Source: a virus
Taxonomy: Duplodnaviria; Caudoviricetes
Reading direction: 5' to 3' (one strand)
DNA length: 64,000 nt
IMG/VR virus record: IMGVR_UViG_3300025018_000091
Shown one piece after another: positions 8,559 to 19,849 of the stretch (positions are counted from its first letter, which is position 1; the number at the start of each line of letters is the position of its first letter). Below the pieces are notes generated by a model. It searched no databases. It worked only from the letters and a program-made list of their open reading frames with translations, and was not told the origin of the DNA. The position numbers and the translations under genes were made by a program.

Positions 8559-8930
8559 TCAAAGGAATGCTTTTAATTTTGACATTTTACGGATTCGTCT
8601 GGCAGATTCTTTTAGATTTCTTCTTGAAAATATAATTATGCAATAAGATTTATTCTTACGACTAGTATTTACACATCTTATATACTCAAAATCATTACCA
8701 GTTTTATCGTTAACTATAGATGCAAAAGTTAAAGCATCAGAAACATAATTTCTAGACATATCAATATCAGGAATCCAAGTGAAATCACCTTTAATCATTT
8801 TACATAATTCTTGATCAGTCCATCTGTCTTTATCAATTATCTTTTGAAGAAAAGCTGCTTTTTTAAAAGTAACACGCTTTTTACATTTCTTTCTAATTGT
8901 TCGTCGTAATTCATTAAAATCATATATCAA
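8559..8930 (-). CDS. Hypothetical basic protein with C-terminal KLKAFL tag
   Basis: TTG start; third-position AT bias supports this frame; ends ...KESARRIRKMSKLKAFL-stop. Confidence 0.65.
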   Translation of the reverse strand: MIYDFNELRRTIRKKCKKRVTFKKAAFLQKIIDKDRWTDQELCKMIKGDFTWIPDIDMSRNYVSDALTFASIVNDKTGNDFEYIRCVNTSRKNKSYCIIIFSRRNLKESARRIRKMSKLKAFL

Positions 8931-9087
8931 ATAATAACTCTTTAAATTCTTCAGGAGATAATTCTACTGCATTTGTAATTTTCTTGAGTGGATTTTCATG
9001 ATCTTTAGCTTGAATTATTATTAAGATTTTTCCACCCTCTATCTTTTTTGCTTCTATAAAAGATTTATCTGTAAATTGAATTTTCAT
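8920..9087 (-). CDS. Small hypothetical protein (55 aa; below the ORF-track cutoff)
   Basis: MKIQFTDKSFIEAKKIEGGKILIIIQAKDHENPLKKITNAVELSPEEFKELLFDI; ATGA overlap with the map stop codon. Confidence 0.7.
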   Translation of the reverse strand: MKIQFTDKSFIEAKKIEGGKILIIIQAKDHENPLKKITNAVELSPEEFKELLFDI

Positions 9088-9884
9088 ATAGAACTCCTAT
9101 CTGTAATAATTTCTACACGATCTTTATGAACATATACAGAATGTTCTGCATGAGCACAAATCCCATCTGCTTTAACTGTCCATCCGTCAGACAATACTCG
9201 TGTATGAGTGGAGCCCATAACTAACATAGGTTCTATAGCAATTACTAATCCTGGTTGGATTCTAATTCCACTATCCAATTCAGATTTATTATCTACAAAT
9301 GGTGGAGTATGAGGTGCATTCCATGATAAACCATGACCTCCGTATTTGGTTATTACAGTAAATCCATTACCTTTAGCAGATTTATGAATAGCATCACCGA
9401 TTACACCTAAGTGTTTATCAATTTCAATAGCGGCAATTCCTTTAGCCAAAGCCTCTTCTGTTGCCTCTATAATCTTTTTGTGCCATTCATATTTTGGTTG
9501 ACCATAGATACAAGTAATTGCAGTATCTGCAATTGCTTTCTCATAAGTTACACCAACATCAAATGTAATAACATCACCATCTTGTAAATAATAATCTTTA
9601 GGAATGCCATGAACCAGTTGTTCATTAACAGAAACACATAAAGCTGATGGAAAGCCTTTATATCCTTTGAATGTAGGGAAGCCGCCCTGATCTATAATCA
9701 GAAGTTCTGCTAGATCATTTAAGGAAGTTAATGATAGTTTAGTTTTATCATTAACTTCCTTTTCTAATCTTTTAAGAACTTTTGCGGCAATAATACCGGC
9801 ACATCTTTGTTTTTGTAACCAATTATTATCCTGCAAAGGAAAAAAGCCGCTTGATTCAAACGACTCTTTTGATATAACTTTCAT
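9084..9884 (-). CDS. map: Type I methionine aminopeptidase
   Basis: GFPSALCVSVNEQLVHGIP, DVITFDVGV, DTAIT, GHGL, IAIEPM, AHAEHSV: D, D, H, E, E metal ligands all present. Confidence 0.95.
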   Translation of the reverse strand: MKVISKESFESSGFFPLQDNNWLQKQRCAGIIAAKVLKRLEKEVNDKTKLSLTSLNDLAELLIIDQGGFPTFKGYKGFPSALCVSVNEQLVHGIPKDYYLQDGDVITFDVGVTYEKAIADTAITCIYGQPKYEWHKKIIEATEEALAKGIAAIEIDKHLGVIGDAIHKSAKGNGFTVITKYGGHGLSWNAPHTPPFVDNKSELDSGIRIQPGLVIAIEPMLVMGSTHTRVLSDGWTVKADGICAHAEHSVYVHKDRVEIITDRSSI

Positions 9885-9900
9885 TTATCTTACCTCTATA

Positions 9901-10161
9901 TTAAGAATTATTTTTCATACCGAATTTTATGTTAGTTGTACGCGCTGCTTCTTCTACAACTTTTCTAACATCTTCATATCCAATATATTCTTTAAATGAC
10001 TCTGTTTTTAATAAACCAACTATTTTTTTGTCAATTAGAATCAAAGTATTATTCATTTCATTGACAGTGGGCTTATCTAATACTGGATTTCCCATTGTAT
10101 TAGATAAATATTGTCTAATTTGTATTAGATCTGTTATTTCTTTTATTTCTACTGGATACAT
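9901..10161 (-). CDS. Hypothetical helical protein
   Basis: 86-aa ORF in operon context. Confidence 0.7.
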   Translation of the reverse strand: MYPVEIKEITDLIQIRQYLSNTMGNPVLDKPTVNEMNNTLILIDKKIVGLLKTESFKEYIGYEDVRKVVEEAARTTNIKFGMKNNS

Positions 10162-10167
10162 ATCAAC

Positions 10168-10437
10168 TCACTTCTGTGATTGATTGGCTGCGCCTCTCAG
10201 AATCTTACCACTTTCATCAATAGCATCAGCTTCAGTCAATCCATACTTCATATATAATTGTAGAACTACATATTTATAGGATATATCTGCTGTATCATTT
10301 TGAGCTAAAGCTTTTTCTGCCTGCGCTAAAGCTAAATGTCTTTTAGACTTAGCTAATTCCAAAGCCATTCTATCTAATTCTTTAAGTTGCTCAACCTGTG
10401 GCACAGGCTTTACTTCCTTAGTTTCTTCATCGCCCAT
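10168..10437 (-). CDS. Hypothetical coiled-coil protein
   Basis: 89 aa with heptad-like helix; GGAG SD upstream. Confidence 0.7.
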   Translation of the reverse strand: MGDEETKEVKPVPQVEQLKELDRMALELAKSKRHLALAQAEKALAQNDTADISYKYVVLQLYMKYGLTEADAIDESGKILRGAANQSQK

Positions 10438-10446
10438 AATAACTCC

Positions 10447-11757
10447 TTACAATATCTCTGCTGCTAATGTTGCTAATTTACTACGCTCACCTTGTGTAAA
10501 TGTAATATGACCAGCTAAATCTGACTTCTTAAATTTTTCAATTACATAAGTCAAACCATTACTGGTTGCATCTAACACAGAGTTGTCAATTTGCTCTATA
10601 TCACCTGTAAGAATAATTTTGGTTCCTTCTCCAGCACGAGTTAATACGGTTTTGACATCTTCTTTAGAAAGATTTTGACATTCATCAAGCAAAATTATAG
10701 AATTAGGAATGCTTCTACCACGAACATATGTAATGGCTTCCATTTCAACTCTACCCTTTTTCTGATACATCTCTAGCTCACGTTTCCAGTCGCCACCATT
10801 CTTACTATGAAATAAAGTTTCAAAATTATCCATGATGGCTTGGAACCAAGGTGCTAGTTTTTCTTCCATAGTACCAGGTAAGAATCCAATATCACTTCCA
10901 ACTGGTTGAATTGGACGATAGATAATGAATTTTTCATATTCTTTTCTATTGATAACTAGTTCTAATGCTGCAGCTAAAACAATTAAACTTTTACCAGTTC
11001 CAGCTCTTCCAATTAATGTAACTAGATCAATTTTCTTATCCATAATCATATCGACTGCAAAAGACTGTTCCTTATTTCTACAAGCAATATTCCATGGATA
11101 TGTTTTCTTAATTAGTTTTAATTTGTTAGGTTCAACTTTACGAGCCAGAGCTATTCCGCCGCCAGATGTATCTTCAAAAAACGCGCACTCATTAGGATTT
11201 AGCTCTATTCCATACAATTCAGGATCAATGAATCCCTTCTTTTGTAAATCTAAACCAGCATCTTCATCAACAATAACTTGGCTACCAGCATATAGATCAC
11301 TCAAAGAGCATTTTGGAGCTTCATGAGCTATAGCATTAATGCCTCTTGCCTTAGCTTTAATGCGTAAATTTACGTCATTACTTACTAATGTTACGTCATC
11401 ATTAACATTTACGCAATGAGCGTTATAGGCAGCAACCAATATATGAGTATCTGGATAATATGGATCTCCAAATCCTTTATATGTATCTGATTTTAAATCA
11501 TAATATGTAGCATCTACTCTTAATAGAATATCACTATCTAATAAAACTCCGGTACTAATATCTCCAAGGTCGCTGGCTTTATCTAGAAGTCTGCAACAAA
11601 CTCTAGCATTTCTTCCTGCTTCTCCTATAGATAACTTCTTTTTATCTAATTCATTAACTACTATAATTGGAATTATTACATCACTATTAGTGAAATGTTT
11701 GTAGGCACTAGGATCATCAATCAAAACTGAAGTGTCTAATATGTATATTTTTCTCAT
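10447..11757 (-). CDS. phoH: PIN-PhoH (PhoH2/YlaK-like) ATPase-RNase
   Basis: N-terminal PIN domain (ILDTSVL, VVNELD, DTHIL, SNDVNLR); GRAGTGKS Walker A; GFLPG; YVRGRSI; LDECQN; LTRAGEG; GDIEQID. Confidence 0.92.
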   Translation of the reverse strand: MRKIYILDTSVLIDDPSAYKHFTNSDVIIPIIVVNELDKKKLSIGEAGRNARVCCRLLDKASDLGDISTGVLLDSDILLRVDATYYDLKSDTYKGFGDPYYPDTHILVAAYNAHCVNVNDDVTLVSNDVNLRIKAKARGINAIAHEAPKCSLSDLYAGSQVIVDEDAGLDLQKKGFIDPELYGIELNPNECAFFEDTSGGGIALARKVEPNKLKLIKKTYPWNIACRNKEQSFAVDMIMDKKIDLVTLIGRAGTGKSLIVLAAALELVINRKEYEKFIIYRPIQPVGSDIGFLPGTMEEKLAPWFQAIMDNFETLFHSKNGGDWKRELEMYQKKGRVEMEAITYVRGRSIPNSIILLDECQNLSKEDVKTVLTRAGEGTKIILTGDIEQIDNSVLDATSNGLTYVIEKFKKSDLAGHITFTQGERSKLATLAAEIL

Positions 11758-12125
11758 TATTGCTCTTGTTCTTCAAAGATTGTCCAAAAATTAATTGTCA
11801 TTTCCATGTATAATTGTTTTTTAGGATCAAGCTCACGTAAATCGCGTTTTAGCTTGTATGTACTTTTGAACCATTCTCCTACTAATTCTCGTTCAACATA
11901 AACTTGCATGTGTCCATCTAAATCGTCTATAACTTGAATACCATAAGTTGCCAAGATAGTTCTTAATTTAACTCTCTGGTCAATAGACAAACTGGTGCCC
12001 GTCGTCCAGAAATCATCGACTGTGACACCCATTTGTTCCAACAAATTTCTAAGAAAACTAAGTTTCTCTTCTTCCTCAATTTGTTTTACATTCTCATTAT
12101 AGTTGAGAAGAATTGTTCCTTGCAT
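11757..12125 (-). CDS. Hypothetical protein
   Basis: 122-aa ORF coupled to phoH. Confidence 0.7.
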   Translation of the reverse strand: MQGTILLNYNENVKQIEEEEKLSFLRNLLEQMGVTVDDFWTTGTSLSIDQRVKLRTILATYGIQVIDDLDGHMQVYVERELVGEWFKSTYKLKRDLRELDPKKQLYMEMTINFWTIFEEQEQ

Positions 12126-12167
12126 TTGCTATAATACCAATTAATTCGTAGTGTTATATTTATTTCG

Positions 12168-14684
12168 TTATCCACACTTACTATTTTTACAGGCAGTACA
12201 TAATACACAGCCTTCTTGATATACTAATGTCCCTTGTGCGCCACATGCAAGACATTTCTTCTCTGCAGTGAACGTACTTCCATCTTTAATATAAGTTTTT
12301 AGAACCCTAGCTATAACTCTAGAAAATGAAGTCATCTCAGAAAACTTATCTTTTGTTAATTGTTCAACAACAAATTGAATTGGAGTTCCATGACGCATTG
12401 CTAATGAAATTGTTCTTGTAAATGCTCCATAATTCTTATTTTCAAAGATGTTCGCAATATCTTTTAATATCATCTGATCGTCATCCTCACCTACGACTAA
12501 ATTATAAGCAGTAATTCCATCAGAATTTTTACCATTTTTAACAATTTTTCCAGTTTTATATTTATTGGGTATGTCAATATACTTAGATAATCCGCCAAAG
12601 ACTTCATATGGTTTGCCATTAATTAACCCAATAAAGATAGTCCAAGCTTCTCCATCAACCTTAGACTTCTTAATATGACATGGTAGTTCTAATGGTCTTT
12701 TTGGAGCAGTATTATATCCAATTTCATCGGGTCTATCAGATAATGATTTGTTTTTCTGAGAAGATTCTTCTTTAATCAATACTCCTGCACGACAACCATC
12801 ACGATATACTGTAAATCCTTTACATCCTAATTCCCAAGCTTTCATATAAACTTCAGATACTAATTCTTTTGTTGCATCAGCTGGAAGGTTACATGTTTTA
12901 CTAATAGAATGATCTACAGATTTTTGTGCAGCAGCTTGTACTTCAACAGAGGCTAACCAATCAATTTCTGTAGCTGTTGCGCCCCAATAGGGAGACTCTT
13001 CAATGTTAGTGTTACCAGTTATCTCCATCCATTTCTTAACACCAGGATGGTATATTGTAAATTCTTGCCATCTATCTCCCATTGCATCTATAAAATCAAC
13101 TCTGGCATTTTTGTCAGACGGATTTATCTTCTTACGACGAACATACGTTAACATATATGCAGGCTCAATTCCAGATGTTGTTTGAGTTAAAGTAGATACA
13201 GAACCGGTTGGTGCAGTAGTAGTTAAAGCAATATTACGACGACCAGTATTTTTCCACATAGCTTTAACTGTTCTTCCAGCATCCTTCATAATACTATTTA
13301 AATAATTATGATTCTTTTCTTTCTTAAAATTAAAGATAGGGAAAGCACCACGTTCTTTAGCAAGAATACAAGAGGATGTATGGGCAGCAACAGCTAATGC
13401 TCTATAAATATCATAAGTTAATTTTACAGATTCTGGAGAGCCATATCTAACACCCATCATAGCCATAGTATCACCGAGAGCGGTTGGTCCTAGACCAGTT
13501 CTACGTCCACCCATGATAGCTTTTCTAATCTTTTCCCATAGATTAAGCTCAACAATTTTTGCCTCCATAGGTTCAGGATCTGCTTTAACTTTAGCTATAA
13601 TTCTATCAATACATTCAATTTCTAAATCAACGATATCATCCATTAATCTTTGAGCAATGATAGCATGTTTATGAAACAATTTATAATCGAAAGAGGCTTT
13701 AGGAGTAAATGGATTTTTCACATAAGATGAAATATTCAAGACTAATAATCTACAGGCATCATAAGCTGATAGAACAATTTCTCCACATGGATTTGTAGAA
13801 ATTGATCCATAGCCTTCTTCTTCATAGATATCTGAAGGTGTATTATCTTTTACATGGTCCCAAAATAATAAACCAGGTTCTGCATTATTCCAGGCAGAAT
13901 CAACTATTTGATCCCATATATCTTTGGCTTTGATTTGTTTTATAATTCGTGCATCTTTTGCATTTTTATCAACTGGCCAACGGAGAGTATAGTCTTCATT
14001 ATCTTTTACTGCATTCATAAATTCATTGTATAAACGAATAGATATGTTTGCGCCAGTTACTCTCTTGCGATCACGTTTGATATTGATAAAAGTTTCAATC
14101 TCCGGATGTTTTCCAGAGATTGTAAGCATTTCGGCACCTCTTCGTCCATTTTGAGCGACCTCTCTACATGTATTAGAGAAGCGATCCATGAATACTCCAA
14201 GACCATCTGTAGTTTTTGCTGCGTTATTTGTTATAGCATCTTTTGGTCTTATTCCAGAAATATCTGCTCCACATCCACCACGACGTTTCATGATTTGTGC
14301 CAGCTCTTGATCAGCCAGCATAATACCACCATATGAATCTAATTTATCTGTATACACACCCTGAATTACAAAACAATTAGAAAGGCTTTGTAATTGATAT
14401 TTATTTCCAATAGCAGACATTGGACTTCCTTGCGGAACAATATATTTAAAACGTTCTAATAGACTAAAAATTTCCTCTTCTGTTAATGGATTTGGATATT
14501 TAGATTCTATTCTAGCAAATTCTTTTGCCAAACGATGGTGCATATCTTCTGGAGTTAATTCCAAATAAATGCCTTCTTGATTTTGTAAAGCATATTTATC
14601 AACAAAAACTTTGGCGGCGAACTCATCTCCGTTAAAATAATCTAGAGTCGCATCAAAAACCTGAGAGTATACGTATCCTGTCAT
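12168..14684 (-). CDS. nrdJ: Class II (B12-dependent) ribonucleotide reductase with C-terminal TSCPD-like/Zn-ribbon domain
   Basis: SLSNCFV, RRGAEM, TNPCGE, RRTGLG, APTGSVS, TSGIEP, DHSISKTCNLP, GCKGFTVYRDGCR; terminal CLACG...EGCVLCTACKNSKC; no beta-subunit gene nearby; no intein. Confidence 0.92.
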   Translation of the reverse strand: MTGYVYSQVFDATLDYFNGDEFAAKVFVDKYALQNQEGIYLELTPEDMHHRLAKEFARIESKYPNPLTEEEIFSLLERFKYIVPQGSPMSAIGNKYQLQSLSNCFVIQGVYTDKLDSYGGIMLADQELAQIMKRRGGCGADISGIRPKDAITNNAAKTTDGLGVFMDRFSNTCREVAQNGRRGAEMLTISGKHPEIETFINIKRDRKRVTGANISIRLYNEFMNAVKDNEDYTLRWPVDKNAKDARIIKQIKAKDIWDQIVDSAWNNAEPGLLFWDHVKDNTPSDIYEEEGYGSISTNPCGEIVLSAYDACRLLVLNISSYVKNPFTPKASFDYKLFHKHAIIAQRLMDDIVDLEIECIDRIIAKVKADPEPMEAKIVELNLWEKIRKAIMGGRRTGLGPTALGDTMAMMGVRYGSPESVKLTYDIYRALAVAAHTSSCILAKERGAFPIFNFKKEKNHNYLNSIMKDAGRTVKAMWKNTGRRNIALTTTAPTGSVSTLTQTTSGIEPAYMLTYVRRKKINPSDKNARVDFIDAMGDRWQEFTIYHPGVKKWMEITGNTNIEESPYWGATATEIDWLASVEVQAAAQKSVDHSISKTCNLPADATKELVSEVYMKAWELGCKGFTVYRDGCRAGVLIKEESSQKNKSLSDRPDEIGYNTAPKRPLELPCHIKKSKVDGEAWTIFIGLINGKPYEVFGGLSKYIDIPNKYKTGKIVKNGKNSDGITAYNLVVGEDDDQMILKDIANIFENKNYGAFTRTISLAMRHGTPIQFVVEQLTKDKFSEMTSFSRVIARVLKTYIKDGSTFTAEKKCLACGAQGTLVYQEGCVLCTACKNSKCG

Positions 14685-14728
14685 AATTCATCCTTGATAA
14701 GAATTAAGTTCAAACAAACAACATTACT

Positions 14729-15358
14729 TTATATTCTAATATGCTCTTTCATTATTGACAGAGAAGAATTAATCAATTTAATACAACTTATTCTAGAGAT
14801 ATTAAGTTTCTTGCAAATTTTATTGATAGACATTGGCTTGTCTCCATCAAACCCATAAGCAAGGCTAATAATTTCTTTTTGGTCATTATTTAAGAAAGAT
14901 AGTGCTCCTTGAATAGCACGATTCACTTGAATTTCTTCCAATTCTTTATCTGGACAATATTTTTCTTCAATCAAAGTTGGCATTAATGCTTCTTTATGAG
15001 GAGTATTATTTTTAGCAACTTTTAATGGAAATCTAATTGTAGTATGTAGATTAGCGCTTCTAGAAATTCTAGTATCAATATATTTGTGTGCCCACCAGAA
15101 AAAAGATCCTTTATTCTTATCGTAGTTATTCATAGACTTAATCAAGGCTTCAAAACCTTCTTGATTAAGATCATCATAATTGCTAAACGCCTTATAACGT
15201 CCCGTTTTCATTGTAACTAAATACTTGAATTTTGACATGCAAATACGTTCATGCTTTGTTAGCTGCTTTTTTATAGAGGGATCATCAGAGTTTTTGCTCT
15301 TTTCTCTGAGATCAATTAACGTAGTCATCAGGTCTTGGGCTTCTTGTTCTGTCAACAT
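14729..15358 (-). CDS. Phage sigma70-family sigma factor (regions 2 and 4)
   Basis: DDLNQEGFEALIKSMNNYDKNKGSFFWWAHKYI (region 2); C-terminal HTH PMSINKICKKLNISRISC. Confidence 0.88.
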   Translation of the reverse strand: MLTEQEAQDLMTTLIDLREKSKNSDDPSIKKQLTKHERICMSKFKYLVTMKTGRYKAFSNYDDLNQEGFEALIKSMNNYDKNKGSFFWWAHKYIDTRISRSANLHTTIRFPLKVAKNNTPHKEALMPTLIEEKYCPDKELEEIQVNRAIQGALSFLNNDQKEIISLAYGFDGDKPMSINKICKKLNISRISCIKLINSSLSIMKEHIRI

Positions 15359-15439
15359 TCTTATCTCTCTCTCGAATAAAGTACTGATATACTTAATTAT
15401 TGATACTAGTATAATATTACTAATTACTAATGAATTTCA

Positions 15440-15598
15440 CTAATTTCTTTTAGAAATCTCTTCTTCTAATAATTCAATAACCGATTCAATAGATGATTTT
15501 ATAATCTCATCATCATCTAACTCTAATACAAATTTTAATAGATCTGCAATATGTTGCAAACGTTGTTTTGAATTTCTATTAGAAGGTGTTTTGGGCAT
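15440..15598 (-). CDS. Small hypothetical protein (52 aa)
   Basis: Manual translation MPKTPSNRNSKQRLQHIADLLKFVLELDDDEIIKSSIESVIELLEEEISKRN; starts 3 nt after the upstream stop. Confidence 0.65.
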   Translation of the reverse strand: MPKTPSNRNSKQRLQHIADLLKFVLELDDDEIIKSSIESVIELLEEEISKRN

Positions 15599-15601
15599 AA
15601 G

Positions 15602-15802
15602 TTAACTATAGCCATTGCTAGCCCAGCCGGAACCTCCGCGTTTTAATACGAAAATTCCGCCTGATGCGATTAATCTGGTTACCTTGTTGGGAGGATCAAT
15701 ATTTTCTTCCTTACACAATGGACATTCTGTAAGTTCCTCTTTTATAGAATGAGACTCCTCGAATTCTCCATGAATTTCACACTTGTATAAATACGTTGGC
15801 AT
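15602..15802 (-). CDS. FmdB-family zinc-ribbon protein
   Basis: MPTYLYKC..HGEFE....I......CP.C...RLI....FVLK..G.GW. Confidence 0.85.
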   Translation of the reverse strand: MPTYLYKCEIHGEFEESHSIKEELTECPLCKEENIDPPNKVTRLIASGGIFVLKRGGSGWASNGYS

Positions 15803-15813
15803 ATTATCCCTAT

Positions 15814-15841
15814 AATCTAATTATGATATTTTTATTGTCAA
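15814..15841 (-). promoter_or_regulatory. Sigma70-type promoter TTGACA-N16-TAGATT
   Basis: Read directly in the 15802-15857 gap; same spacing as the sites at 20809 and 33253. Confidence 0.55.
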
Positions 15842-15856
15842 TCCCGACATTTTTTA

Positions 15857-16162
15857 TTATCTTTTTCTACGGTCCATTTTTGTCTGTAATTCATGATACT
15901 TAGATTCACCAAGCATATTTGCATATACATTAGTGTTATTAGCCATCTCTTTTTTAAGTTGCTTGGCGTCATTTTTACATTTATCAATTAAATCTTGACC
16001 GGTTAATTCGACAACCCCTTTACCACCAAGAGATATCATTCTTTTAGCTGTTTCTTGTAAACATTTTGGACATTGTGTTGGAGGATCCTGTTTAATTGAA
16101 TATTCATCTTCCCATTCGTGTTTACACTCAGGGTTTTGACACTGATGCTCGTAAATAGCCAT
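15857..16162 (-). CDS. FmdB-family zinc-ribbon protein with C-terminal helical extension
   Basis: MAIYEHQC...C.HEWE...SI...P...CPKC.....KRMIS. Confidence 0.85.
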   Translation of the reverse strand: MAIYEHQCQNPECKHEWEDEYSIKQDPPTQCPKCLQETAKRMISLGGKGVVELTGQDLIDKCKNDAKQLKKEMANNTNVYANMLGESKYHELQTKMDRRKR

Positions 16163-16350
16163 TATCTTTCCTTTGTTTCATTGACCAATAATCGATCTAT
16201 TAGTCTATATTCTATATCATTAACCCAATTAGACTTTATAAAATTCTTGTGCTTTTCATTCTTAATTTCAAAAACTATAAATAGCTTTCCTGTTGTTTCT
16301 TCATATTCTAATCTAACAGCTTCACCAATGATTTCTTCATAATTTTTCAT
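16162..16350 (-). CDS. Small hypothetical protein
   Basis: 62-aa ORF with GAGG SD, coupled to the downstream gene. Confidence 0.65.
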   Translation of the reverse strand: MKNYEEIIGEAVRLEYEETTGKLFIVFEIKNEKHKNFIKSNWVNDIEYRLIDRLLVNETKER

Positions 16351-16376
16351 GATTACCTCATTAGTTAAATGCCTTA

Positions 16377-17786
16377 TTATATGTCTAATAGTTCAATTTT
16401 TTCAGATATATCATCTGGGTCTCTCATGATAAATTCTGTAGTATCTTCATCAATCTTGTCATCCAATAATGTGCCATTAGCCAAATTTTTAATAATACGA
16501 CCTTTACCTAATTCACCATCTCTATTCTTTATTAAATGATACAACATGTCAGGATATTGTTTTTCATTTGGTCTAGTTTCGATTTGTACAGCAATATTTG
16601 CGTTTTGTAAAATTAATGCTGAACGTCCGACTCTATGAAGACCAATCTTTTCTTCTGCATCTTTAGATGGTTTTGCTCTATTAAGTTGAACTGCACTCAA
16701 TACTATACAATTATGAACTCTAGCAAATTCATGGATTTTTTCAGCAATCTTACCTAGCTTTAACCAATCTTCCATGTCTGCGCCTTCATACGCCATTAAA
16801 CCCAGATAGTCAATTACAATAATTTTTGGATCGTAATTAGCTCGAACATCCTCGTAAATAAGTTCAAGACTTTCCATCGTTGCACCACGAGGAATGTCTA
16901 TAATCTCAAACTCATAAGGATAGTTTTTAATAAAACGCAAAACCTTTTTAAGCTTTATTGCCTCATCAGGGTTTAAAGAGGCATTTCTAATTTTCTTTGA
17001 AGGGTTTCCGGACATACGCGATAATACACGGTTTAAACATGGTTTAAATGGCATCTCCAAAGAGAAATATAAAACATTATTTCCTGATTTCCAGTCACCA
17101 GTCATGTCTATATTATTTTCTTGTAGCCACATCTGTACTGCTATGTTCATCAATAACATTGATTTACCAGCACCAGATTCAGCCCCAATCAATAAAAGCT
17201 CTCCATCACGCAAACCATCCGTAGCATAATCTAAATATGAATATCCCGTCTTTATCCCCCTATCAAAATTGGGATCGGTCATTTTTGCATTATATTCATC
17301 TCTAAAAATTGGAATCGCTTCTTTTAAAGTCTTTCTTTCATATGCTTTAACTTCGCTCAAGCTTTTTATTGATTGCAAGGTTTTTTGCATATCTAAAACG
17401 GCTCTGCCTACATCCATGCTTCCTGGTTGTAATTTTACAAACTTATCCTTCATCGAAGAAAGCTCTCGTTCAGCATATCTGTTCTTAAACTTCTCAAGAT
17501 CATGCTTAAACTCTGAGTCGACAATGTTTACCTTATCTAATTGCTCCCAAATTCCCTTAATATAAGCAATAAGTTTGTCGTTATTTCCTTTTTCAAGCTT
17601 TTCAGTTATTACTCTTAATGTTGGAATATCTTTATAAGTTTTGGTATAGCCAACTATTAAATTGGCTGCATTCCAGGCTTCTGCTGAAAATAATTTGGTA
17701 TCACATTCATTTGCAAAATCTAATGCATGCTTCTTATTTGTGATAAGGTTTTTAAGAATAGTTAAATCTAACTCTGGTAAACTCAT
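16377..17786 (-). CDS. dnaB: Replicative DNA helicase, DnaB-like
   Basis: GIKTGYSYLD, GAESGAGKS, YFSLEM, IVIDYL, SAVQLNR, KNRDG; no intein. Confidence 0.93.
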   Translation of the reverse strand: MSLPELDLTILKNLITNKKHALDFANECDTKLFSAEAWNAANLIVGYTKTYKDIPTLRVITEKLEKGNNDKLIAYIKGIWEQLDKVNIVDSEFKHDLEKFKNRYAERELSSMKDKFVKLQPGSMDVGRAVLDMQKTLQSIKSLSEVKAYERKTLKEAIPIFRDEYNAKMTDPNFDRGIKTGYSYLDYATDGLRDGELLLIGAESGAGKSMLLMNIAVQMWLQENNIDMTGDWKSGNNVLYFSLEMPFKPCLNRVLSRMSGNPSKKIRNASLNPDEAIKLKKVLRFIKNYPYEFEIIDIPRGATMESLELIYEDVRANYDPKIIVIDYLGLMAYEGADMEDWLKLGKIAEKIHEFARVHNCIVLSAVQLNRAKPSKDAEEKIGLHRVGRSALILQNANIAVQIETRPNEKQYPDMLYHLIKNRDGELGKGRIIKNLANGTLLDDKIDEDTTEFIMRDPDDISEKIELLDI

Positions 17787-18487
17787 TATTTCTTCTTTCT
17801 AAAATCTTCACCAAAAACAGGAAATGTTTTTAGATAACCATGCATTAAACTATCAATGCTTTGTTTTAATGGACCATTAAAACTCTCAACTATATTGGGA
17901 CTATTTGTACACATAAGCGTTGGTAATTTATTTTGACTACGACTTCTAAATACTCCCTCTAAACTGCGCGCATATAAATCAGCAGCATTTTCAGATGGCA
18001 TAAATCTAGAATCAAACTCATCAATTACTAAAAAATCAACTAAAGCAAGTTCTCTCTTAGCTAAAAACTTATCTTCGCCTATTCCTTGAGTTACAACATT
18101 AACAATGTCACTCAGCGTAGAATACAAACAAGAAAATCCCTTTTGACTAGCTTTCTTTAATATACATGTAACAGTCATTGTTTTACCCAAACCATGACCT
18201 CCAGCAAAACATATTGAATTACCATTAATATATGATGATTTTAAATCTGCTGTATATTCATCGTATTTAACCAATAATCTTGGGTCGCCATGAAAATCTC
18301 TTTCCATCTTAAGAGTCCAATATTCTATTGGGATATTACTTTCGGCATATCGATTAACCGCAATCATTTTTATTATTTTATCTTTAGGTTCGTCACTCCC
18401 ATGTTCAATAACTGATAGAAGTTCTAATAGTTTTTTTCTAGGAATACTATTAAGAGATTTACTCCTTACAAAATCTAATGAATCCAT
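17786..18487 (-). CDS. DnaC/IstB-like AAA+ helicase loader
   Basis: Walker A GGHGLGKT; Walker B FLVIDEF; PTLMCTN; directly upstream of dnaB with TAATG overlap. Confidence 0.85.
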   Translation of the reverse strand: MDSLDFVRSKSLNSIPRKKLLELLSVIEHGSDEPKDKIIKMIAVNRYAESNIPIEYWTLKMERDFHGDPRLLVKYDEYTADLKSSYINGNSICFAGGHGLGKTMTVTCILKKASQKGFSCLYSTLSDIVNVVTQGIGEDKFLAKRELALVDFLVIDEFDSRFMPSENAADLYARSLEGVFRSRSQNKLPTLMCTNSPNIVESFNGPLKQSIDSLMHGYLKTFPVFGEDFRKKK

Positions 18488-18933
18488 TATTTATTACCTT
18501 TTTTATTCAGTATATTTGGATAACCATATTGAACTGGTTTGACTTCAGTGATTTTATGATTATTCAGTCTAGCTGCAATTATTTTTTTTTCTTCTTCTAT
18601 TGCGGCTAAGTGTAATTCTGATATTTTTTTAGCACGTAATGATATAGGATTTATTTCTGAAAAATCTGGATCTTCATTCTCATCTTTTTGTGTGGGAATA
18701 AATGGTTTAGGTCTATTTTCTCGATCTTCATATACACTTTCAGCTTTCGGGTTTTCCTCTTTCATAACCTTAACAAGCATTATATCTTGCTCAGGATTTT
18801 GTATAATTAGATAGCTTTTACTATCTTCAGATCGTAAAATGAAATCTTCATCCCAAATATCTACAATTCCTTCAACACTCGTTCCATTTCGAAATAATAT
18901 CTTAACTAATTGACCTGGTACTAATTTTTTCAT
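18487..18933 (-). CDS. Hypothetical protein with an N-terminal Sm/LSm-like pattern
   Basis: VKILFRNGTSVEGIVDIWDEDFILRS resembles the Sm1 motif (V.I.L.NG..L.G.I..FD.F.ILL). Confidence 0.5.
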   Translation of the reverse strand: MKKLVPGQLVKILFRNGTSVEGIVDIWDEDFILRSEDSKSYLIIQNPEQDIMLVKVMKEENPKAESVYEDRENRPKPFIPTQKDENEDPDFSEINPISLRAKKISELHLAAIEEEKKIIAARLNNHKITEVKPVQYGYPNILNKKGNK

Positions 18934-19250
18934 AAAAATGCCTTTAACTTTTTTGTTTTCTTAAATAAACGAATTAATTCAGACTCTTTTGCATGAAGAA
19001 TAGCGCACCGTGCCATAGAATCATTTAAAGTGATGTCATAGATATAATAAATAACTGTTATATCATCTGAGGACCAATCATAATCATTATTTTCTAATTC
19101 TGATAAACATATTTCTGCTATATCTTCTCTATCAATATTAACATGTATTGTAGCAAATCCAATATTATATATGTTAATTACATCTACAATAAATTTGGAA
19201 CTACAAACACCAACTTTAGAAAAAAAATCTATACAATTAAGTATCTTCAT
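18930..19250 (-). CDS. Hypothetical protein with C-terminal KLKAFL tag
   Basis: Ends ...KESELIRLFKKTKKLKAFL-stop; ATGA-coupled on both sides. Confidence 0.7.
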   Translation of the reverse strand: MKILNCIDFFSKVGVCSSKFIVDVINIYNIGFATIHVNIDREDIAEICLSELENNDYDWSSDDITVIYYIYDITLNDSMARCAILHAKESELIRLFKKTKKLKAFL

Positions 19251-19849
19251 ACAACTCTATCTAATATAGACATATCTAAACCTAAACCTTCTACACTAAC
19301 AAATGCATAATCTAGATCTGCTGGTTTATCTGTCATTTGTTTTAGAAATGCTAAATCACCATATGTAGAAATATTAAACCCAAAGGAACTGAAAATATCT
19401 TTATATTTATCGGGAAGCGGAGTTGAGCGATCAATAGAATTATTACTTAATTTACTATTCAATAACACATTAAATTTGTATTCATTCATTATGCCTTCAA
19501 CAGTCATAAAAGATATAGAGGTAAGCCTACGCTTAGCTTTAGTTACCTTATTTAAATAAACCCAATCAATATATTCTTTTAGAAGAACGGGGTCAGAGGT
19601 TAGGTTTGATGCCAACTTTTTAACTTGAAAAACCTCAAAAGATTTTGATGGCGCGGGGCTATTGAATTTGAATTTGTACTTCACTTTATATGTGTCATAA
19701 TACTTTTTGCAAAAATAACCTAAAATATGCGGGACTTTCCATTTAGAAGTATCTAAAGAATCAATCTCTTCAAATTTCTCAAAAAGCCGTTTATATTTCT
19801 CATTGGGAACATCATTTAAGTTATAATAAGAATCATTTAGTGAGTTCAT
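19247..19849 (-). CDS. Hypothetical protein, candidate replication initiator/organiser
   Basis: Helical basic protein upstream of the DnaC-like/DnaB pair; function inferred from position only. Confidence 0.45.
   Translation of the reverse strand: MNSLNDSYYNLNDVPNEKYKRLFEKFEEIDSLDTSKWKVPHILGYFCKKYYDTYKVKYKFKFNSPAPSKSFEVFQVKKLASNLTSDPVLLKEYIDWVYLNKVTKAKRRLTSISFMTVEGIMNEYKFNVLLNSKLSNNSIDRSTPLPDKYKDIFSSFGFNISTYGDLAFLKQMTDKPADLDYAFVSVEGLGLDMSILDRVV

Follow-up and report, generated by a model that had tools for sequence, protein, structure and literature searches.

In T-even phages, a conserved terminal capsid targeting sequence (CTS) is carried by otherwise highly diverse defence proteins, the internal proteins IPI-III and Alt (PMC3012670). 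This sequence lies at the N-terminus, is removed at a consensus site by the prohead protease and directs its bearers to the scaffolding core. In poxviruses, ankyrin-repeat proteins carry a C-terminal PRANC/F-box-like domain, the partner of which is Skp1. In bacterial machines, a number of terminal docking peptides (the clamp-binding motif/PIP box, the SSB C-terminal tail and the ClpX-binding (XB) peptide of SspB) are flexible and bind known hubs. The jumbo Bacillus phage G encodes a lineage-specific set of ~35 diverged zinc-ribbon paralogues, for which roles as transcription factors or as structural proteins that bind DNA have been suggested (Iyer et al., 2021; PMC7824862); an ending shared by these zinc ribbons with other proteins is not described in that study. 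Here we analyzed a 64,000-nt stretch of DNA (the window) from the Caudoviricetes record IMGVR_UViG_3300025018_000091, in which two small proteins, P1 and P2, end in the same basic helix finishing with KLKAFL. P1 and P2 are members of a large, clade-specific population of small accessory huge-phage proteins with one terminal helix, the consensus of which consists of a helix cap, either acidic or Ser/Thr, and then [RK]-h-x-x-[LIM]-x-x-F-x-COOH, represented here by [RK]-h-x-x-[LM]-K-A-F-[LW].

As with the T-even CTS, a constant short terminal peptide is the sole common part of diverse, fast-changing accessory proteins encoded at variable loci. Unlike the CTS, the huge-phage ending is C-terminal in all bearers, forms a folded helix, shows no sign of cleavage and occurs in non-structural operons. 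The poxvirus PRANC proteins also combine a variable body, there a target-binding one, with a constant C-terminal element, which links many paralogues to one host machine, but PRANC is a recognisable domain and its bodies belong to one repeat family, whereas the huge-phage bodies are heterogeneous. The zinc-ribbon bearers identified here (23 paralogues in three genomes) are, as far as the descriptions allow the two to be likened, the same kind of expansion as in phage G; unlike the phage G family, P1 and P2 have no zinc ribbon. The first-pass annotation of the window had drawn an analogy with bacterial docking peptides, where a single short C-terminal motif brings many unrelated proteins to one hub; the huge-phage element differs from these peptides in being a helix joined to a fold. 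The hydrophobic half of the PIP box (Q-x-x-[LIM]-x-x-[FY]-[FYLW]) fits L(-5)-x-x-F(-2)-[LW](-1), counting back from the last residue, but the Gln is absent, position -8 being occupied by the hydrophobic residues F, M, I or Y and never by a conserved Gln. The FtsZ C-terminal peptide I-P-A-F-L was rejected as a counterpart of L-K-A-F-L: its Pro is missing here, the FtsZ peptide is non-terminal, and the non-KAF variants of the ending do not fit it.

The C-terminal module shared by P1 and P2

The data set comprised the entire 138,879-base virus record that holds the window, with 123 called genes; all genes of the region are on the minus strand. Both open reading frames (ORFs) reported in the first-pass annotation were confirmed, together with their KLKAFL-stop endings and differing codons (Table 1). 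P1 (123 aa) ends in RKMSKLKAFL, i.e., ...RRIRKMSKLKAFL, and P2 (106 aa) in KKTKKLKAFL, i.e., ...LFKKTKKLKAFL; the last six residues and the stop are encoded by AAA TTA AAA GCA TTC CTT TGA in P1 and by AAG TTA AAG GCA TTT TTA TGA in P2. Among the ORFs of the record only these two end in [LM][KR]AF[LWIM], and among the 123 called genes only these two have Phe at the second-last position. With the gene ends shuffled column by column, the probability that some pair of the 123 genes has identical last six residues was P = 0.00047, and an analytic estimate for any shared terminal hexapeptide was 0.0009; thus, the match is real and not due to chance.

Coincidence of two lysine-rich ends in an AT-rich genome would draw on the 1.8-2.5-fold enrichment of Lys at several of the last six gene-end positions. 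It is refuted by the above probability (~5e-4), by the dozens of terminal bearers in relatives and by retention of the ending in the closer homologues of P1, and its likelihood is negligible. Namely, SKLK[AV]FL is kept in four P1 homologues of 61-78% identity, and a more distant relative of 182 aa ends in QLKAFL. A word-based homologue search with P1 returned P1 itself and three homologues.

The six identical residues stood as the core of the earlier claim, yet they are too short a description of the likeness. In the hhalign comparison of the P1 family with P2, only the last 27-29 residues aligned (P = 0.003; YCIIIFSRRNLKESARRIRKMSKLKAFL vs. RCAILHAKESELIRLFKKTKKLKAFL), forming a common module of a hydrophobic strand followed by a basic helix. 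The net charge of the last 14 residues is +6 in both proteins. The rest of P1 and P2 indeed shows no likeness: with the last 14 residues cut off, hhalign produced no alignment (E = 0.29 over 5 columns), P2 went undetected (E = 5.9) when a profile built from four orthologues of P1 was run against the ORFs of the record, and the two proteins belong to separate BLASTP clusters. The E-value of 0.005 in a single BLASTP comparison of P1 with P2 comes mainly from the common C-terminal stretch. Simple paralogy of the full-length proteins, named at the outset as one of two outcomes that would refute a shared tag, finds no homology outside the ending to build on; older homology of the bodies, undetectable at the sequence level, may exist.

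Occurrence of the ending in related huge phages

A scan of the genome and its relatives for further copies, proposed in the first-pass annotation, found many in relatives and only the two in the 138-kb record. We retrieved 26 related loci via the DnaC-like ATPase adjoining P2, on IMG/VR contigs of up to 446 kb, and took G001, G002, G003 and G013 as full records for a census; gene lists were produced by a simple longest-ORF caller, and the percentages are rough. The 26 loci contain ORFs of 64-138 aa ending in [LIM][KR][AV]F[LWIAT], all but one of them on the coding strand. In 1683 frames, the pentamer [LIM][KR][AV]F[LWV] was found 48 times at the terminus and 7 times internally, with 0.4 terminal occurrences expected, in a sample that the retrieval of the loci had enriched for the motif.

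Bearers reached 25 bits or more, versus less than 12 bits for noise, when scored with a profile built from the last 32 residues, and the P2 tail reached 27.9-33.4 bits against the tail profiles. Matches to the tail profile numbered eight in G001 (446 kb, complete), nine in G002 (433 kb) and nine in G009 (a 55-kb fragment), while none was found in G003, G010 and G011-G014, and the distribution of the ending among relatives is patchy. All matches inspected, down to E ~0.2, finish at the last residue of the ORF or one residue before it, so that the stop falls within one codon of the motif.

Listing of all genes with F(-2) yielded the general motif [RK]-h-x-x-h-x-x-F-x-COOH, with the subtypes KAF[LW] and K-[IL]-K-T-h-h-x-F-[SL]. 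Of 656 genes in G001, 32 end in the general motif, as do 44 of 658 in G002, 10 genes in G003, 2 in the 138-kb record and none in G013. In registers shifted by 1-7 residues it occurs at most twice, the expectation from the internal rate being 0.2-0.7 (0.6-0.7 in G001 and G002). ORFs closed by the KAF[LW] subtype number 15-17 in each complete genome, and the general and KAF patterns together account for 37/656 genes in G001 and 49/658 in G002; overall, 5-7% of the proteins in related huge phages carry the ending. An unselected census of gene ends in G001 and G002 showed enrichment of F(-2) (2.2-2.5-fold) and R(-9) (2.0-2.3-fold), as well as of K(-4), L(-5) and W(-1), all five lying within 1.6-3.1-fold; the census of G003 and G013 showed no enrichment at those positions.

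Comparison of the tail profile with 1.84 billion representatives, in which a 40-residue profile is near the limit of sensitivity, gave eight matches at E ≤ 0.001, all terminal, at least six of which are ORFs already met in the records of this phage clade. Among longer proteins, a word search that used the tail alignment yielded 10 matches, all unnamed or annotated as 'hypothetical' and mostly located on contigs of 55-477 kb. The region had no Megablast match in deposited phages. Searches of P1, P2 and 56 other bearers against Pfam-A and PHROGs produced one significant match, Peptidase_M24, on the methionine aminopeptidase (MetAP) fusion described below; searches that also covered the neighbors of P1 and P2 named no other family. 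A literature search for such a constant tag found no description.

Variable bodies and a constant terminal helix

After removal of the 14 terminal residues, 59 bearers fell into 38 BLASTP clusters, with P2 alone in its cluster. The bodies include P1-like and P2-like orphans, the beta-rich zinc-ribbon family with N-terminal and central CxxC pairs, small proteins of MORN-like repeats that lead directly into ...EEF-x-R-L-I-K-M-K-V-F-W, and bearers of only 47-61 aa. P1 and P2 have neither CxxC pair and share with the zinc-ribbon family only the terminal helix motif. A proposed common N-terminal motif did not prove to be general among the relatives. In one relative (G004; L040:400-1563, plus strand), a MetAP 57% identical to that of the window is fused in frame to a 120-aa body ending in NLKAFL, as seen in one assembly, where a lost stop is possible. 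The fusion is followed by tagged ORFs of 82, 115 and 110 aa, interrupted by a 58-aa homologue of the 55-aa gene that neighbors P1. Two further MORN-like repeat proteins, in the relative G011 (L026:4222-4761 and L026:6756-7256, plus strand), have weak DUF6745 matches, stand on either side of the replication genes and end in ...EEF-x-R-L-I-K-M-I-[AP]-I-W, which from its sequence may be a diverged variant of the ending that lacks the Phe.

Synonymous codons are all used at the conserved positions: AGA, AGG, CGT, CGA and CGC for Arg(-9), TTG, TTA, CTG, CTA and CTT for Leu(-5), four GCN codons for Ala(-3), and both codons each for Phe(-2) and Lys(-4). Hence, it is the peptide that is constrained, rather than a signal in the DNA. 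This full use of synonymous codons rules out a DNA-level signal such as a promoter or ribosome-binding site (RBS) of the next gene; an ATGA overlap ends 26/59 tagged genes. Among proteins chosen solely by their last four residues, 56/59 have R or K at position -9. Conservation extends over 12-18 residues with helical periodicity, and the ending is a helix of 14-20 residues placed straight after the last strand, with a spacing that hardly varies among P1, P2 and most KAF proteins. Where a tagged body has a homologue, the latter is almost always tagged as well (50/53 matches); one looser variant of the ending and one split gene are among the three untagged exceptions. An arrest-peptide reading was rejected, as it conflicts with the helical periodicity and with the folded model described next. 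A link to termination was rejected too: the release factor is of the RF2 type (SPF motif), and the stop codons of tagged genes show no clear difference from those of other small genes.

The zinc-ribbon family was modelled as a mostly beta fold with a mean predicted local distance difference test (pLDDT) of 88.5 and a predicted TM-score (pTM) of 0.83. Its terminal helix (residues 192-205) has pLDDT ≥ 90 and is continuous with the fold; such high values suggest that, at least in the models of this family, the helix packs on the fold rather than dangling from it. A search with this model gave nothing at E ≤ 0.001 in the PDB (Foldseek), a best Z of 5.3 VIA-wide and TM-scores below 0.5 in the Atlas. 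The AF2 model of P1, built from five sequences, is weak (pLDDT 63) and was left out of the fold search on that account; it contains strands at residues 80-88 and 95-102 and a helix at 103-122. In the ESM Atlas, P2 gave no usable match, the Atlas's own model being poor. The proposed similarity to the SsrA tag or the SSB tail is not supported, the ending in the sole confident model being a helix joined to the last strand. The portable C-terminal tag suggested earlier survives in part: the ending is strictly terminal, is under selection as a peptide and occurs on several kinds of bodies, but it is not loose or freely portable.

These features also bear on a C-terminal degron that would set the time at which an AAA+ protease, of the host or the phage, destroys early proteins. 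Known C-terminal degrons, such as the ssrA LAA and the MuA RRKKAI, are short, unstructured and sufficient for recognition. The strictly terminal position, the non-polar end and the probably early accessory nature of the bearers suit a degron, but 12-18 conserved residues with helical periodicity, modelled as folded, do not, and a degron fused to the housekeeping enzyme MetAP would be odd; we consider this explanation very improbable.

We tentatively prefer to read the ending as a docking helix that stays constant while the bodies vary. Its hydrophobic stripe (-12, -8, -5, -1) would pack on the protein's own last strands, while Arg/Lys(-9), Lys(-4), Phe(-2) and the free carboxylate one residue on would form one constant surface, dispensable for folding, that would let many different bodies touch the same putative partner of the host or the phage. 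Host takeover or counter-defence would be the most likely function, given the rapid turnover of the genes. Docking is favoured since the charged residue at -9, Lys(-4) and the exact Phe plus one residue are kept while the bodies are not conserved, and since the ending also occurs on different body types and on proteins too small to wrap a helix. Its extension to a docking system with a single reader serving ~1/16 of proteins of several unrelated folds, with P1 and P2 as cargo or adaptors and with other huge-phage clades having tag-reader pairs of their own, is possible and more doubtful.

The alternative that requires most attention is a purely structural role: all bearers would go back to a single small ancestor, or to a few, whose fold the helix closes. 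Tandem duplication and rapid divergence would have effaced the likeness of the bodies, the helix would have persisted as a requirement of the fold, and there would be no shared partner. The confident zinc-ribbon model, with its helix inside a compact fold, shows that the helix could be purely structural, and the hydrophobic strand at a near-constant distance before the helix in P1, P2 and most KAF proteins points in the same direction, as do the near absence of homologues lacking the helix and the tandem placement of tagged genes, which are adjacent 9 times in G001 and 12 times in G002 versus 2.0 and 3.6 expected. Core helices, however, normally keep a hydrophobic pattern, whereas here the charged -9, Lys(-4) and the exact Phe are kept and the sheet is not conserved. 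Nor does closure of a fold account for the ending in bearers of 47-61 aa, which have too little chain to wrap around a helix, in MORN-like repeats and in sequences of largely helical appearance, or for 38 clusters without detectable body similarity. On balance, we rate a purely structural helix as somewhat less likely than docking.

Several observations weigh against a docking helix. The continuity of the zinc-ribbon helix with its fold is one of them. Gain or loss of the helix alone was not seen, orthologue pairs in the 53 matches almost never differing in it, and in the MetAP case a whole tagged body, not the helix alone, was fused. The tandem arrays point to plain old paralogy for many bearers, and the gene lists behind the counts come from a crude ORF caller. 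The presence/absence comparison of related phages found no common partner: 343 candidates, shadow ORFs included and too noisy a set to use, are present in G001 and G002 and absent from G003 and G013, G003 itself having 10 bearers of the general motif, and no reader emerged among them. MetAP was rejected as a reader or co-varying gene, being present in the tag-free G013 too. The common binding partner postulated in the first-pass annotation is not supported, and no test favoured any of the partner classes it listed (protease, replisome, capsid or compartment).

Loci, genomic placement and meaning of the tagged genes

P1 and P2 indeed belong to different modules. P1 follows MetAP and the 55-aa gene at the border of the tail-fibre genes, whereas P2 lies within the replication operon (Table 1), the gene order of which is kept in the 26 related loci. 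ATGA overlaps are present at both ends of P2, joining its own ATG with the stop of orf200 and its own stop with the ATG of orf148. Of 23 relatives, 17 have no gene in the slot between orf200 and orf148, five have one or two KAF genes there and one has an untagged gene. In the closest relative, G003, the flanking genes of both slots are present, although P1 and P2 homologues are not. This variable occupancy identifies P1 and P2 as accessory genes at insertion hot spots. A word-based search of 5.8 billion protein clusters with P2 returned no match but P2 itself.

Table 1. P1, P2 and their gene neighborhoods in the window
Feature	Position	Strand	Description
P1	8559..8930	-	123-aa accessory gene; TTG start at 8930; ends KLKAFL-TGA
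P1 shared C-terminal module	8562..8648	-	residues 95-123, last strand and terminal helix; hhalign to P2 80-106
P1 motif core	8562-8597	-	last 12 residues
55-aa gene	8920-9087	-	conserved; between MetAP and P1
MetAP	9084-9884	-	methionine aminopeptidase; Peptidase_M24 called on homologue in relative L002
P2	18930..19250	-	106-aa orphan accessory gene, translationally coupled
P2 shared C-terminal module	18933..19013	-	residues 80-106; hhalign to P1
P2 motif core	18933-18968	-	last 12 residues
Replication operon	16377..19849	-	orf200, P2, orf148, DnaC-like ATPase, DnaB helicase
orf200	19247-19849	-	upstream neighbor of P2
orf148	18487-18933	-	downstream neighbor of P2
IstB/DnaC-like ATPase	17786-18487	-	in replication operon
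DnaB helicase	16377-17786	-	in replication operon

Some details of the two loci deserve mention. The start of P1 (window 8924-8930) reads TTG ATA TAT where orthologues have ATG TAT; the orthologous ATG is now ATA, and the sole in-frame start is the TTG one codon upstream, which produces an 11-base overlap with the end of the 55-aa gene. The latter gene ends in S-P-E-E-F-K-E-L-L-F-D-I, with the same Ser-Pro-Glu-Glu-Phe cap as in many tagged proteins, and its terminal helix has neither the basic half nor the F-x end. Among the homologues of the DnaC-like ATPase (L003-L028), those in three related loci have an internal G-Y-[LM]-K-[VA]-F within ~17 residues of the C-terminus, and the window's own ATPase has G-Y-L-K-T-F at that stretch; this tag-like stretch is probably a coincidence.

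Tagged genes cluster in stretches of small genes and in operons that serve replication, nucleotide metabolism and translation, where their companions are DnaB, MetAP, RF2 and RNase T; these operons are probably early or middle genes. Tagged genes are absent from a ~100-kb GC-richer block of long ORFs in both G001 and G002, which looks like the structural genes. The homologous high-G+C block occupies 20-125 kb in G001 (L083-L088) and 240-300 kb in G002 (L135-L137), its G+C content being 47-59% and 38-45%, respectively, compared with 29-37% elsewhere. Both records are labelled 'provirus' in IMG/VR.

This placement is relevant to a procapsid sorting signal, a C-terminal counterpart of the T4 CTS on proteins injected with the DNA. 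The heads of giant phages hold dozens of internal proteins, so a gene share of 5-7% would fit their range, and the pattern of variable accessory proteins at hot-spot loci with a constant terminal peptide is that of the T4 CTS. Conversely, the tagged genes avoid the structural-looking block and reside in operons that are probably early or middle, no conserved protease site is visible upstream of the terminal helix, and the helix appears to be integrated in the fold. A sorting signal is therefore improbable.

A basic amphipathic helix that binds a polyanion, either the inner membrane (as in MinD and FtsA) or rRNA or DNA, also seems to us to have little probability. It would explain the charge of the tails (+6 in P1 and P2; in the last 14 residues, a median of +2 for tagged proteins versus 0 for untagged ones), the Trp, Leu or Phe at the very end, and the translation-related neighbors, namely RF2 within the array of zinc ribbons, MetAP at its slot and in the fusion, and an IF-1-like gene. 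However, the hydrophobic moment of the tails is only modestly above that of other gene ends (0.32 vs. 0.25; 0.38 for P1 and P2), and neither lipid nor RNA binding explains why the Phe is invariant and its distance from the C-terminus fixed; the MinD and FtsA helices are strongly amphipathic, basic and loosely conserved, without a fixed C-terminal register. With at least 40 tagged genes per genome, translation neighbors may also arise by chance. Furthermore, the likeliest carrier of a ribosome-docking helix, the phage peptide deformylase, ends in a Cys-rich SEC-C-like motif.

The release factor mentioned above (L088:11160-12242, minus strand, G001) has PCRF and RF-1 domains with SPF and GGQ motifs and lies within the zinc-ribbon array; the order is the same in G003 and L080. 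Bacterial peptide deformylases have a C-terminal helix, and ribosome docking by analogy with it was rejected, the phage deformylases having no motif. Three of them (L160:1408-1938, minus strand; L161:1501-2049, plus strand; L159:1384-1932, minus strand) end in C-x-C-G-S-G-K-K-[YF]-K-K-C-C. This Cys- and Lys-rich ending stands in place of the bacterial helix and presumably resembles the SecA C-terminal zinc-binding (SEC-C) motif.

Taken as a docking helix, the ending appears to be a contact surface, so far undescribed, that stays the same on many accessory proteins with variable bodies. Its presence on 5-7% of the proteins in these related phages provides a handle on small orphan genes, of which huge phages carry hundreds. 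A reader, should there be one, would define a hub of host takeover or counter-defence in widespread environmental phages; if the helix is structural only, dozens of orphans would join one very diverged superfamily with a fold that has no clear match in the PDB or the ESM Atlas.

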